Translations under genes and position numbers: made by a program | Shown here: positions 8,035 to 51,952 of the stretch, piece after piece | How the letters are laid out: each line of letters starts with the position of its first letter | Position numbering within the stretch: the first letter of the stretch is position 1 | NCBI GenBank assembly: GCA_951406725.2 | Contig: OX597814.1 | Span: 18,786,001 to 18,850,000 of the forward strand | Direction of reading: 5' to 3' | Length of the DNA: 64,000 nucleotides | Source: Octopus vulgaris | Lineage: Eukaryota | The notes under the pieces: generated by a model | What the model was told of the DNA's origin: nothing | Seen by the model: the letters and a program-made list of their open reading frames with translations, nothing else | Databases searched by the model: none

Positions 8035-9311
<1,277 letters not shown>

Positions 9312-9524
9312 GTTATTATTATTATTATCATCATCATCATCATCATCATCATCTCAACTAACACTTCTGAGTTCCTGAAGTAGATCCATCGGAAATATAC
9401 CCCGACTATGGAAGTCCGCAAATAATCCAAACAAAGCCAGTACCCTACTCACTACTTCAACACACTAGTCGACATATCCCCTTCAGTCTAAAATACAAAA
9501 TATTAAATACATATATATATATAT

Positions 9525-30284: not shown

Positions 30285-30331
<47 letters not shown>

Positions 30332-30517
30332 AATAAAATATATGCATATATATAAACATATATGTACGTACCTACCTCTACATGTACATATACACGCATA
30401 TATGTGTACAGGACACCAAAAGGACGTCGAACACATAGAGAGACGAAAAACATAGACACAAACCAAGGAACAAGACAAGCAAAAAAAGGAGATACAGGAC
30501 AATAAGCACAACGAAAA

Positions 30518-30580
30518 ATCCCCTTCTTCAGTCGCTAAAGTTTCATCTACTAAACGTTTCAAAGGATAAAAGCGAGACGT
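30518..30580 (-). ncRNA. Strand-swapped (pseudoknotted) hammerhead candidate, family 2, copy 1
   Basis: ACGU-C-UCGCU-uuu-AUCCUUU-GAA-ACGU-17nt-AGCGA-CUGAAGA-AGGGGAU: intact core, GUC site, all three stems pair. Confidence 0.75.
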
Positions 30581-31349
30581 ATACTTCGAATGAAAAATTC
30601 CTTCCTGCGAAAAGCAAATCAATTAAAATTCTGAGATCTTGTCGCAGAGGGGTAAAAAAAGCAAGACGGTAACGACAGTACAAACATATAAACAGTAAAA
30701 AATATATATATAAACAGTGGAAAAATAAATATATAACAGTGAGAGACAGGACAAGGAGAACAAGATAAGAAGGGCTGTTAACGCCAGACGAAAAAAGTAT
30801 TGCAAACGCTGGATTATAGTGGACGACGAGAGAGGAAGATGTCGACCAGTGGCCTTAGAAGGCAGGTGAGAAAAGACGGGATAGCAGTTACGACGGAAGT
30901 TCGTCGCAGATGGACGACGGGAATGGGGGAGAAGGAGCAAGAGGAAGAGAGAGAAGAAGGGGAATGGTGCGAGGAGACCATGAAGAACAGTAGGGGGAGA
31001 GAGAGAGGAAGAGACAAGTTAAGTGAGGGAAAAAAGACGAGAAAGGGAATGGGAGAGAAAGAAAGAAAGATGCAGAGTCGCGTGAGAGTTAATATCAAGG
31101 CGAACTTGATAAACAGAACAATCTTACTTAATAGGGTGCGTGCGTTTAGTCGTATAATATGTTAATAAAATATATGCATATATATAAACATATATGTACG
31201 TACCTACCTCTACATGTACATATACACGCATATATGTGTACAGGACACCAAAAGGACGTCGAACACATAGAGAGACGAAAAACATAGACACAAACCAAGG
31301 AACAAGACAAGCAAAAAAAGGAGATACAGGACAATAAGCACAACGAAAA

Positions 31350-31412
31350 ATCCCCTTCTTCAGTCGCTAAAGTTTCATCTACTAAACGTTTCAAAGGATA
31401 AAAGCGAGACGT
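31350..31412 (-). ncRNA. Strand-swapped hammerhead candidate, family 2, copy 2
   Basis: Identical to 30518-30580. Confidence 0.75.
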
Positions 31413-32181
31413 ATACTTCGAATGAAAAATTCCTTCCTGCGAAAAGCAAATCAATTAAAATTCTGAGATCTTGTCGCAGAGGGGTAAAAAAAGCAAGACG
31501 GTAACGACAGTACAAACATATAAACAGTAAAAAATATATATATAAACAGTGGAAAAATAAATATATAACAGTGAGAGACAGGACAAGGAGAACAAGATAA
31601 GAAGGGCTGTTAACGCCAGACGAAAAAAGTATTGCAAACGCTGGATTATAGTGGACGACGAGAGAGGAAGATGTCGACCAGTGGCCTTAGAAGGCAGGTG
31701 AGAAAAGACGGGATAGCAGTTACGACGGAAGTTCGTCGCAGATGGACGACGGGAATGGGGGAGAAGGAGCAAGAGGAAGAGAGAGAAGAAGGGGAATGGT
31801 GCGAGGAGACCATGAAGAACAGTAGGGGGAGAGAGAGAGGAAGAGACAAGTTAAGTGAGGGAAAAAAGACGAGAAAGGGAATGGGAGAGAAAGAAAGAAA
31901 GATGCAGAGTCGCGTGAGAGTTAATATCAAGGCGAACTTGATAAACAGAACAATCTTACTTAATAGGGTGCGTGCGTTTAGTCGTATAATATGTTAATAA
32001 AATATATGCATATATATAAACATATATGTACGTACCTACCTCTACATGTACATATACACGCATATATGTGTACAGGACACCAAAAGGACGTCGAACACAT
32101 AGAGAGACGAAAAACATAGACACAAACCAAGGAACAAGACAAGCAAAAAAAGGAGATACAGGACAATAAGCACAACGAAAA

Positions 32182-32244
32182 ATCCCCTTCTTCAGTCGCT
32201 AAAGTTTCATCTACTAAACGTTTCAAAGGATAAAAGCGAGACGT
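32182..32244 (-). ncRNA. Strand-swapped hammerhead candidate, family 2, copy 3
   Basis: Identical to 30518-30580. Confidence 0.75.
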
Positions 32245-32908
32245 ATACTTCGAATGAAAAATTCCTTCCTGCGAAAAGCAAATCAATTAAAATTCTGAGA
32301 TCTTGTCGCAGAGGGGTAAAAAAAGCAAGACGGTAACGACAGTACAAACATATAAACAGTAAAAAATATATATATAAACAGTGGAAAAATAAATATATAA
32401 CAGTGAGAGACAGGACAAGGAGAACAAGATAAGAAGGGCTGTTAACGCCAGACGAAAAAAGTATTGCAAACGCTGGATTATAGTGGACGACGAGAGAGGA
32501 AGATGTCGACCAGTGGCCTTAGAAGGCAGGTGAGAAAAGACGGGATAGCAGTTACGACGGAAGTTCGTCGCAGATGGACGACGGGAATGGGGGAGAAGGA
32601 GCAAGAGGAAGAGAGAGAAGAAGGGGAATGGTGCGAGGAGACCATGAAGAACAGTAGGGGGAGAGAGAGAGGAAGAGACAAGTTAAGTGAGGGAAAAAAG
32701 ACGAGAAAGGGAATGGGAGAGAAAGAAAGAAAGATGCAGAGTCGCGTGAGAGTTAATATCAAGGCGAACTTGATAAACAGAACAATCTTACTTAATAGGG
32801 TGCGTGCGTTTAGTCGTATAATATGTTAATAAAATATATGCATATATATAAACATATATGTACGTACCTACCTCTACATGTACATATACACGCATATATG
32901 TGTACAGG

Positions 32909-33016
<108 letters not shown>

Positions 33017-33041
33017 ATATATATATATATATGTATGTATA

Positions 33042-33106
<65 letters not shown>

Positions 33107-33902
33107 TTGTATGTATGTATGTATGTATGTATATGTGGTTCTATGCAATATTACTGAATGAATGATTAATTACAAGCTTTGGTTGATAGTTTTCCTTTTT
33201 TGTAATTATTTTATTAAGTGAATGTACAATACCGTTATAAAACATACTGCAAGTCTTACAACGGGTAATTAAAACGTAACCGCTCATATAATTGCGTTTC
33301 AGGACTCTACCTCTCTCTCTGGGCCTCCGTCGGTCATGGCTGACCAAGGATAATGTCATCCGTCCGTTGAGTTGTCTATTCAGTTTTTGCAAGCCTCCTG
33401 CAGAATTTACCAGAATTGCAAATAAAGGGCGTGGATGCTCGGAAGAAAACTTGATTTTTCACTTCTTAATACTTTCTAAAAATTTTCGATGTTTCTCGGT
33501 GTATGCCAGTGAAACGATAGTAAATTATAAGCGTCATGTGTTTATCGTATGTATACGCACCAGTGACGTGCATGATTTTGATTTCAATAAAACACCTTCA
33601 AAGCGCGTTGTGTTAAATAACACAATAAATATCCCGACAGCAACGTTTCTCCCTTCTTGAGGATCGTCAGTTATGTATATCCTGTAGTCACGTGCATAAA
33701 TGAAATTTGAAGCACCTAATACATAGTGACTTGTGAATAATATATACAGTGATATTGCGTAAAGCTTGTCAGTCTAAAACAAACTCTGTGTATTCGTTCT
33801 ATACAGGTTTATGATACACGAATGTTTATAATTTAATGCACTTTCGATAGCGGACATAGAATTTTTTGGCCTGACAAGCTTGCCACATTATCAATGAATT
33901 TC

Positions 33903-37635: not shown

Positions 37636-38032
37636 TCTTTATATATAAAAGTGAAGTTGTGTGTCTGTCTCCTACGATTTAGATTCCTAACTACTCCCAC
37701 ATTTTGCGGTGCAGTTTAACCAAAACCGGGTAACTTATAGTCGTGATTCATATCGAGCCCTTCTGGGTATTAGCGCGCGTCTACGATGAGTCTACGATTT
37801 AAAAAAAATTTACCATCATTTTTTTCCATTTTAATGCATTTTTTCGCTATTATATAAGGGAAATAACTCTCTAAAAATGTCTACGATGAGTCAACGATTT
37901 AAAAAAAAATTACCATAATTTTTTTTCCATTTTTAATGCATTTTTTTTGCTATTTTTTGGCTATAACTCTCTAAAAATGCTTATATAGTTATTTCCCTTA
38001 CAAACCCGAGCAACGCCGGGCGATACTGCTAG
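37636..38032 (+). mobile_element. Non-autonomous Helitron
   Basis: 5' TC after A, 3' CTAG before T, subterminal GC-rich hairpin-like cccgagcaacgccggg; internal ~100-bp tandem duplication (gtctacgatgagtc...). Confidence 0.85.
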
Positions 38033-50286: not shown

Positions 50287-51952
50287 TTTCCATTATTATT
50301 ATTAGTAAACGAGAGACAGCAAAATTTACTTGATATAATCATAAAGTATAATTATATATTCCGCTAAGTTACAGCTCACTTATTTTAGTTTGAGTTACTC
50401 CTCCTTCGAATTGTGTTTGCGATTCGAACTCAGAACGCAGAAGTCACCAAAAGCAACAACAACAACAAAAAATATCAGACAATATACAATAACTGCATGA
50501 ACCCAAAACGTGATACCATCATGATAGATCTACCAACTACAAATGGCAGCCAAGTGTCCGTGAAAGCGCAGCGCACAATTTTAAATGTAGGTTTCATTGA
50601 ATAATATTGTTCTAACTGGAATCAACATTACTGGAAAACTCTTTATTATGGATCTATTTGTGCAGGTTTTACCTAGGAACTATTAAACAGCACCAATAGT
50701 TTGTGAAGTATATTTCATAATTGCCACTTAAATGTGGCTAATCCCTAAGGGTGGATGCTACTGTAGCTTGTAGCCCCAGGAGGACACCTCCTCCAGCTGG
50801 CTATTGACACACTTTCTATGCCCAATCAGTATTTGCAAAGGGAAGCCATCCTACCCGTCTTCAACCTATGATACACGCGGACTCGAGTTTCTGGGTATTG
50901 ACCCGTCATCAGCTTGTGACAATCCAACGAGTACACCTGTATGTCTTCACTTTAAGCTGTCAAACATCACTGGTAAATTGCACTGAAATTATACCGTAAT
51001 GTTTTAAAAGCAGAAGGATATATATATCATATAATCCTAGCTTTATTGGGAAAAAAGGAAACGCACGAATCAAAATGGACAAGAATAAAAATGAGAACAG
51101 GCATTGATCGTACACCCTTTGATCATTTCCGTAAACTAAGACGACTGGGTCTAAACAATAATCCATTTTACTATAGATATGAGGCCTGGAATTTTGGGAG
51201 TGAAGGCGAGTGGTGTACATCGAACCCAGTGCTCAACGAGGTACCCATTACAACGACACTGGAAGTGTGAAACATAAAATCGACGTCGAATTCTTTGTAC
51301 TGTAGGTTAAAGGCCTGAACTTTTTTTGGAAGGAGCCTGGTCGATTACATCGACCCGGTGATCAACTGGCACTTAGATCATAGACCACGAAACGATTCCG
51401 CCAAACGTCTTAGCAAACGTTCCTTAAATGTGTTGCCGAGAGTAGTGTACTCTATACAACTAATCTAGTCTGCTCGAGATCAGAGAGATCTTGAGAGTAT
51501 CTTTAAACGAGTGTTTATCAGCCAAAACATTTTGAGTGACACAAATATGCAACCACTAGACATATCAAGGAAAGAGTTTCGTATCTCAAACTGTCTCTTA
51601 GAACAATGCAATTAAAACTTTCAAAGTCAGTTCGAATGCTAGGCGTTCCAGTCCGCAGTGGTATCTCATGGCAAATCCACATGTAGTAATCATGAAATAG
51701 AATAAGTTGACAACAGTTATATGGTGCAGAATAGAAAATAAAGTAAAAAGTATGAAGTATAAAGGCAAATGACTCTATAACTGCTAACGCACCAGAAATT
51801 ATTTTATATATCACGCGATAGGAATTTTTTCGCATCTCTAATCAAAGTAACTAGGGCTAAGAGGTTTATGTTACACTTACAGCTTTAACATTTTTTCAGG
51901 ATGCGAAAAAAATACAAACATGTGTGTGTGAGTGTGTGTATGTATGTATACA

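Follow-up and report, generated by a model that had tools for sequence, protein, structure and literature searches.

The window analyzed here, a stretch of 64,000 nucleotides from the Octopus vulgaris contig OX597814.1, carries on its minus strand a hammerhead ribozyme whose three core blocks follow one another in the order S-G-C, which is not a circular permutation of types I-III and gives a pseudoknotted fold. We consider it likely that this type-SGC hammerhead serves as processing signal for a non-autonomous element that resembles retrozymes and depends on Penelope-like elements (PLEs). The features directly supported are the block order and the core, the pairing of helices I and III and of an additional helix termed P3ext, the presence of one ribozyme per unit, and the dispersal of copies with a fixed 3' end. 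The topology as such is known, but the scaffold, the host and the carrier are new, and a non-circularly permuted hammerhead, previously associated with RNA circles of uncultured origin, is thereby placed in the genome of an animal, where it is present in high copy number.

The core of copy 1 spans 30518..30580 (minus strand), and the 63 nt quoted for it in an initial, sequence-only reading matched the letters of the window exactly upon re-reading. The core words are GUC with C17 at 30576, GAAA at 30560-30557, and CUGAAGA at 30531-30525, with the cut predicted at 30576/30575. Helix III consists of 30580-77/30557-54 and helix I of 30575-71/30536-32. All core bases of CUGAnGA, GAAA, and NUH are present, and the S, G, and C blocks are each uninterrupted, with one base inserted after A9. 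The non-circular block order that had been proposed (A-C-B in the terms used there, S-G-C in ours) was borne out by the letters and by a full descriptor, as was the point that descriptors for types I-III are blind to this order. The whole domain, comprising the core, P3ext, and a further helix termed P0, extends over 30507..30607 according to the pair counts in a 33-member alignment, and identical copies are found on the same strand at 31339..31439 (copy 2, predicted cut 31408/31407) and at 32171..32271 (copy 3, predicted cut 32240/32239).

The motif is a real feature and not a chance match. A G-block-to-core pattern had three matches in the 64-kb window compared to a mean of 0.07 in 100 shuffles, and the full descriptor, which demands all three helices, matched three times in the window and not once in 150 random windows matched for dinucleotide composition. 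Rfam returned no matches for the whole 64-kb window at gathering thresholds, and the SGC fold was not predicted by nested folding programs (z 0.78), whose scope does not include pseudoknots.

The sequence-only reading had regarded the topology as undescribed, which turned out to be mistaken, since it is the type SGC of Eckert, Friedrich, Weinberg, and Weinberg 2023 (PMC10085705). According to the parts of that paper on which we draw, type SGC consists of the HRIMA-1 motif and SGC variants, together 583 sequences in two motifs, all of which come from RNA in soil and spruce metatranscriptomes and none from genomes of known organisms. Five of the six examples tested in vitro cut, at 0.007-0.19 per minute, and the sixth was without a cleavage site. 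The same parts describe a linker of typically 3 nt that may help join stems I and II, a tolerance for 1-2 bases inserted after A9, as well as a fourth helix, required for activity, that links the outer sides of stems I and II. The window motif shares with these ribozymes the S-G-C order, the full core, the three crossing stems, the short linker between stems I and II, and the single base after A9. It differs in that the linker pairs with the 3' flank in their fourth helix, whereas in the family of the window the 5' flank pairs with both instead, and in that it resides in chromosomal animal DNA, within retroelements, rather than in environmental RNA. Moreover, the published descriptors, as far as given in those parts, need CGAAA, either CUGAUGAG or CUGAUGAUG, and a linker no longer than 15 nt, whereas the window motif has A at N7, an inserted A, U at 11.1, and a linker of 17 nt; the search of Eckert et al. 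would consequently not have matched it. As far as can be tested from its letters, the window motif belongs to the SGC topology class but lies outside the HRIMA-1 and SGC variant alignments.

The fold was analyzed using an alignment of 33 members from the three nearest clades and a five-helix model, in which 90.7% of the cells are paired, 15 of the 29 pairs display compensatory change, and 110 cells are changed on both sides. The covariation score of 0.361 compares to 0.212 for shuffled alignments (0/500) and to 0.08-0.13 with slid partners, but the shuffle test is overstated because the structure was derived from the same, related sequences, and it is the per-pair tables that carry the weight. 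Helix I is 94% paired across the 33 members, with compensatory change in five of six pairs, and its positions 1.1, 1.2, and 1.4 are U-A or C-G in almost every row; helix III is 98% paired, with compensatory change in three of five pairs. In P3ext, which pairs the 5' flank with the linker (30595-30589 with 30547-30541 in copy 1), five of seven pairs are compensatory. P0, between the further 5' flank and the 3' flank (30603-30599 with 30514-30510), has one compensatory pair out of seven and a single mismatch, G-G, in the copy of the window. The covariation among genomic copies that had been called for was thus found, both in this alignment and in core-word matches across families. Conversely, the suggestion that the 17-nt linker spans the distance from helix III to helix I did not hold, as most of it is paired with the 5' flank. 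The pair counts indicate that the ribozyme domain is larger than the core, with the pairing of linker and 5' flank replacing the helix that Eckert et al. placed between stems I and II. A helix of their type, between linker and 3' flank, can be drawn in the copy of the window, but fails on the family (68% paired, with a score below the shuffled mean).

The core is invariant in the 33-member alignment except at N7 and N17, and U16.1 is found in 33/33 members, with the proviso that N17 and the conservation of the core were partly preset, since the core words belonged to the search patterns; among the core-word matches in the loci examined, N7 and N17 vary within what hammerheads allow. These loci hold 115 distinct core-word matches, of which 72 pair at 9/9 positions in helices I and III, a further 11 at eight, 11 at seven, and 21 at fewer. 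The 83 that pair at eight or nine positions do so with helix sequences that are unrelated between families. Viral contigs, which served as a control, yielded 37 core-word matches, 23 of them distinct; none of the 23 pairs at eight or nine positions, one pairs at seven, and none has the fold. Taken together, a conserved SGC fold is almost certain. The loop between helix III and P3ext (30591-30581 with 30553-30546) contains GA-rich words on both strands, which we take to be reminiscent of a kink-turn. Such an element would supply the U-turn that the fold requires, but it is not kept in clade 2.

Of the three helices originally proposed, I and III are those that covary, whereas the 7-bp helix II is valid for the allele of the window only. 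Across the family it does not covary, and one of the 33 members forms its closing pair. The family register of helix II (30564-61/30523-20 in copy 1, with A30524 bulged) has 4 bp including two G-U pairs, is 95% paired, and has compensatory change in one of its four pairs. With the A after A9 bulged, the C11.1 of the family pairs with G10.1. The subfamily of the window instead has U11.1 (position 30561), where most copies and contigs of two other organism labels have C, and this U makes the second, 7-bp register possible. The 3-nt linker assigned to the clamping of helices I and II fared similarly: it can be drawn in the copy of the window, and the clamp role matches the proposal of Eckert et al., but in the family the linker between these helices is 5-6 nt long because of the bulged A. 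A slipped pairing, CCUUC/GAAGG, is also available in clades 1-2 and would bury G8 and A9. Being short, rich in G-U, and compensatory in one of four pairs, helix II is the weak point of the SGC reading.

At least six further families with SGC order were observed (L051, L061, L120, L144 on the minus strand, L081-L086, L104-L107, and L114-L128). In these distant families, including one found in PLEs of the Naiad clade, either 4-9 extra bases separate A9 from a displaced helix II, or helix II is not clear. If they cut, the core tolerates insertions far larger than has been assumed.

The three ribozymes of the window lie in a non-coding tandem array of 3.1 units of 832 nt (30330..32912, minus strand), whose periodicity is perfect, with 1751/1751 positions identical at period 832. 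There is one ribozyme per unit, and the array is U-rich, with 42% U and 40% GC on the ribozyme strand. Its 3' end lies near 30330, 246 nt downstream of the last predicted cut, and its 5' end at 32912; the former is flanked by (AT)n target sequence at 30288..30329 and the latter by (AT)n/(ATAC)n at 32913..33134. Two predicted cut-to-cut monomers of the minus strand, 30576..31407 (832 nt) and 31408-32239, are candidates for linear or circular RNAs that would arise by release and circularization. The array contains short open reading frames of 102-121 aa that come back with each repeat unit, and no ORF combining GIY-YIG and reverse transcriptase (RT) domains was found in the array or elsewhere in the 64-kb window. 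The terminal 90 bases of the element at its 3' end (30330-30420) are rich in short palindromes and alternating purine-pyrimidine runs resembling the (AT)n target, and could possibly aid priming.

Searches of the whole genome (2.8 Gb in 227 contigs) with an 81-base motif gave 1104 first-look candidates, and the 40 that were scored were all 100% identical. Three genome patterns had 1409, 2204, and 429 matches compared to 0, 49, and 72 for the reversed patterns; these patterns fix the core words but not both strands of the helices, and the counts include tandem units and some loci twice. Thirty loci and the window together represent 18 distinct young insertions. All 18 share the 3' end, 246 bases downstream of the predicted cut and in (AT)n, while their 5' ends vary. 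The arrays comprise non-integer numbers of units; their 3' end is fixed and their 5' end free, and one to four ribozymes per array were seen. Cut-to-cut monomers measure 824-875 bases, and in the young subfamily the loci differ from one another by 0-13 positions per 832-nt unit. Within loci, differences amount to 0-2 per 240 nt at 13/16 loci, with two further rows, L015 and L026, at 12 and 30, and the units are identical within L041 even though its subfamily is 25% away from that of the window. Older copies (L031, L032, L035, and L047) have inverted 5' pieces, as found in PLEs. Both flanks of the insertions are microsatellite, and this is the background against which target site duplications were sought. 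Read in this way, the insertion pattern is that of target-primed copying by PLEs, as this is set out in the passages of PMC8557442 considered here. The ribozyme stretch is also covered, at few differences, by contigs carrying two other organism labels, and the family therefore extends beyond this assembly. Contigs of four sequencing runs, two of them putatively RNA, cover the unit and the head-to-tail joint, a joint that tandem DNA yields as well as a circle does.

If the template has been cut, a copying enzyme that approaches from 3' cannot go past the cut, and the 5' ends of the genomic copies carry a corresponding footprint. The copies counted were those with 11 alternating purine-pyrimidine bases abutting the 5' end, and counts were taken on the forward strand, since the reverse search repeats loci. 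On the 3' side of the cut, a 31-nt window in the linker and G block contains 178 such 5' ends (~5.7 per base); a window spanning the cut, with ~12 bases 3' and 18 bases 5' of it, contains 269 (~18 per base); and a 31-nt window wholly 5' of the cut contains 36 (~1.2 per base). Across the predicted cut, the 5' ends per base drop ~15-fold, and as a share of the copies at risk they fall from 1.9% to 0.16% per base; this step rests on three patterns with differing anchors and on ends that are visible because a microsatellite flanks them. Among the first 100 of 2686 matches listed, 15/15 distinct loci have their 5' end 2-12 bases 3' of the predicted cut. Microhomology to TA shapes the exact positions of the 5' ends and aids the peak 2-12 nt short of the cut, but similar microhomology is found 5' of the cut. 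We regard the step as good indirect evidence that clade 1 cleaves at or next to the predicted site. [quoted passage not shown] The step also constitutes genomic evidence for in vivo cutting by a PLE-type hammerhead, something not demonstrated by RNA data in the case of the Anolis element.

Two other readings bear on cleavage itself. The SGC-shaped fold could be a docking or start signal for a PLE reverse transcriptase and cut poorly, depend on protein, or no longer cut. The weak, poorly covarying helix II and the long insertions after A9 in distant families would suit such a role, as would the distance of 110-250 nt between the motif and the 3' end at which copying begins, and the hammerhead of the only PLE tested, that of Anolis, is described in the relevant part of PMC11167929 as protein-assisted and dispensable for insertion in vitro. 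A docking signal would nevertheless leave unexplained that the 5'-end drop coincides with the predicted cut, where a stall caused by structure fits badly because the 3' partners of the remaining strands would already have been copied, and that helices I and III hold the exact hammerhead register around the NUH site with helix sequences unrelated between families. We consider this reading unlikely. Still less probable, to the point of being very doubtful, is that cleavage takes place only between units or molecules, with the S block of one acting together with the G and C blocks of others in the manner of dimeric minimal PLE hammerheads. The units are indeed in tandem, helix III is palindromic in the copy of the window, and minimal PLE hammerheads are reported in the passages used of PMC4209133 to function as dimers; however, helix III is non-palindromic in most other families, P3ext covaries as a local clamp, and the Naiad consensus has a single copy of the motif. 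Besides, the cyclic order on a monomer circle would still be S-G-C.

A link to a particular branch of PLEs emerged from published consensus sequences. In the passages available from Craig, Yushenova, Rodriguez, and Arkhipova 2021 (PMC8557442), Naiads are described as being without a canonical hammerhead, and eight entries, among them Naiad_Ovul and Naiad_Esco, carry the label 'HHR_half_core', the second half of their core lying on one side or the other; these passages offer no interpretation of the half cores as a permuted ribozyme. When the published FASTA was inspected by eye, a sister SGC motif was found in the Naiad_Ovul consensus ~110 nt from the 3' end. It has a GUA site, a 6-bp helix I, a helix III, a P3ext directly next to helix I, and, after four extra bases, a helix II of 5 bp, and its 3' UTR thus has S-G-C order and the same P3ext layout as the domain of the window. 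The preceding record (Naiad_Obim by table order) also ends with an S-G-C motif by eye, and Naiad_Esco has the S-G-C order with helices I, III, and P3ext while a clear partner for helix II is absent. By the same inspection of the published records, no S-G-C motif was seen in Naiad_Omin, Naiad_Adux, or Naiad-1_Skow.

In the genome, L123 comprises the end of a Naiad ORF, the UTR, and then the SGC motif, and the motif was found in four of ten windows downstream of Naiad ORF ends (ten of 41 ORF-end matches were examined). Among the six tail windows without it, L209, L215, and L217 are still UTR or interrupted, and three are unrelated DNA. The sister SGC family of the Naiad tail is present at L123-L126, L210-L212, and L218, and the match between this genome and the published Naiad tails of octopus is almost identical. 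The tie between the window element and Naiads seems to be one of architecture and position, and the present mobilizer may be another PLE: the unit of the window had no match to the UTRs of L123 and L106 at E values up to 1, and the Naiad copies are old, with 77-90% identity to the L123 query, compared to the 0-13 differences per 832 nt of the young subfamily of the window. At L106, a Naiad ORF ends 1.07 kb upstream of another SGC family; this case was not counted since there is a foreign piece at the join and the UTR is absent in relatives. Two other apparent partners were set aside: the Neptune-like RT upstream of the SGC motif in L092/L109 was judged a chimera, as 29 and 20 further loci do not repeat the arrangement, and an endonuclease piece beside L107 is separated from it by (TA)n, with 0/29 further loci repeating that arrangement.

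The PLE clades named here were assigned from characteristic motifs and by-eye comparison with the files of Craig et al.; four PLE fragments were not recognized by Pfam. A very young, high-copy PLE represented by L200 and 149 other matches, at 96-100% identity, has frames of up to 717 aa together with a GIY-YIG domain at the C-terminus and was assigned by eye as Hydra-like, after Hydra-1_Obim of Craig et al. It had 19761 first-look candidates, and its tail displays a type I-like hammerhead whose core seemingly starts with CCGA, not CUGA. An abundant Neptune-like PLE (L144, L154, and L159-L178) has a zinc-finger-like linker together with a GIY-YIG domain at the C-terminus, and in most of these loci the hammerhead descriptors found nothing.

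Two further alternatives leave the ribozyme standing and concern its partner and its life cycle. The element may have no tie to Naiads and be moved by a young Hydra-like or Neptune-like PLE, the likeness to the Naiad tail being convergent or old, and we give this even odds. The Hydra-like PLE is the most evidently young one here, as all 150 scored endonuclease matches fall at 96-100% identity and the frames are long; the Neptune-like RT has 9802 candidates; both PLEs end in (AT)n; and the Naiad copies are not only old but broken. On the other side, the SGC motif was found in sense beside 0/29 and 0/20 Neptune-like loci and 0/29 Hydra-like loci, beyond the query loci, compared to 4/10 Naiad tails. 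An origin in a Naiad-type tail and current movement by another PLE are compatible. The second alternative concerns only the circle: the tandem units may stem from uncut multimeric transcripts or local DNA duplication without a circular RNA stage. The identity within loci does not separate these models, because the differences between loci are also small. The non-integer arrays with their fixed 3' and free 5' ends speak against it, as do the within-locus identity maintained even in the divergent subfamily of L041 and the fact that other animal retrozymes accumulate as circles, according to the parts of PMC7229834 consulted. A route without circles therefore strikes us as possible, though somewhat doubtful.

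In the cycle that we propose for a PLE-dependent retrozyme-like element, the array would be transcribed on the minus strand, and each ribozyme would fold locally with its 5' flank as a splint. The cut after GUC, for which the 5' ends offer indirect support, would free monomers of 832 bases, some of which a host ligase might close into circles. A PLE protein would then prime in (AT)n and copy from a fixed internal site; short copies would stop near the cut, and tandem copies would pass beyond it. Internal initiation has been demonstrated for another PLE, as stated in the part of PMC11167929 that we use. For circles as the template, the odds are even. Among Xenopus retrozymes, one of nine cut, according to the portion seen of a preprint by Li, Clavereau, and Pollet 2026 (10.64898/2026.07.22.740005).

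Non-LTR retrozymes are the closest functional counterpart. In the available parts of Cervera and de la Pena 2020 (PMC7229834) and of the preprint by Li et al. 2026, they are defined by a type I hammerhead. The window element resembles them in being a non-coding tandem with one hammerhead per unit, a length within their range of 51-972 bp, low GC content, dispersed monomers and short multimers, PLE-like ends, and no LTR structure, but its hammerhead is of type SGC. It thus appears to work like a non-LTR retrozyme without being a member as defined there, given that it lacks the type I hammerhead. With Naiads, as far as the passages describe them, it shares (TA)n targets, 5' truncation, partial tandems, and inverted 5' copies, all of which are common to other PLE clades as well; Naiads, however, have an ORF with an N-terminal GIY-YIG and a C-terminal RT, whereas the window element has neither an ORF nor alignable likeness to a Naiad UTR. 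The hammerheads of PLEs have as their signature an extra base between 9 and 10.1 together with G10.1-C11.1, according to the part of Cervera and de la Pena 2014 (PMC4209133) drawn upon here. Both features recur in the family of the window, as does the occurrence of many variable families per genome. The minimal type I PLE hammerheads described there have the order C-G-S, little or no helix III, and a dependence on dimers, whereas the window motif has the order S-G-C and a full, extended helix III.

Our literature search, from whose scope subscription papers mostly fell, turned up no description of type SGC in any genome, retrozyme, or PLE. The natural variation seen here goes far beyond the 583 known sequences of two motifs and uses a different scaffold. 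A broader proposition, to which we assign a probability of about one half, is that type SGC, far from being a rarity confined to environmental RNA circles, is the standard ribozyme of a Naiad branch and its retrozyme dependants, that cephalopods contain it in thousands of copies which no type I-III search has detected, and that many of the 'half cores' are such ribozymes, with a new 5'-splint scaffold, up to nine bases between A9 and helix II, and a cut recorded in the 5' ends of the truncated copies. The present finding offers a testable answer to the apparent absence of hammerheads in Naiads, and it shows that whole families escape retrozyme censuses based on type I descriptors.

Elsewhere in the window, the minus strand holds four hammerhead word sets in canonical, type I-like order, whose cores begin at 50912, 27620, 15286, and 33670 and all of which were missed by Rfam. 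The core at 50912 has a clear helix II hairpin and a helix III, and resembles a word set behind a Neptune-like ORF in L156; the four are probably the tails of other PLEs. A frame at 8213-9448 (minus strand), broken by a (TTA)n run, has a weak zf-RVT match (E 8e-4, below the cut-off) and is likely a LINE remnant, and a 100-bp tandem repeat with two copies that are 86% alike lies at 37779-37979.
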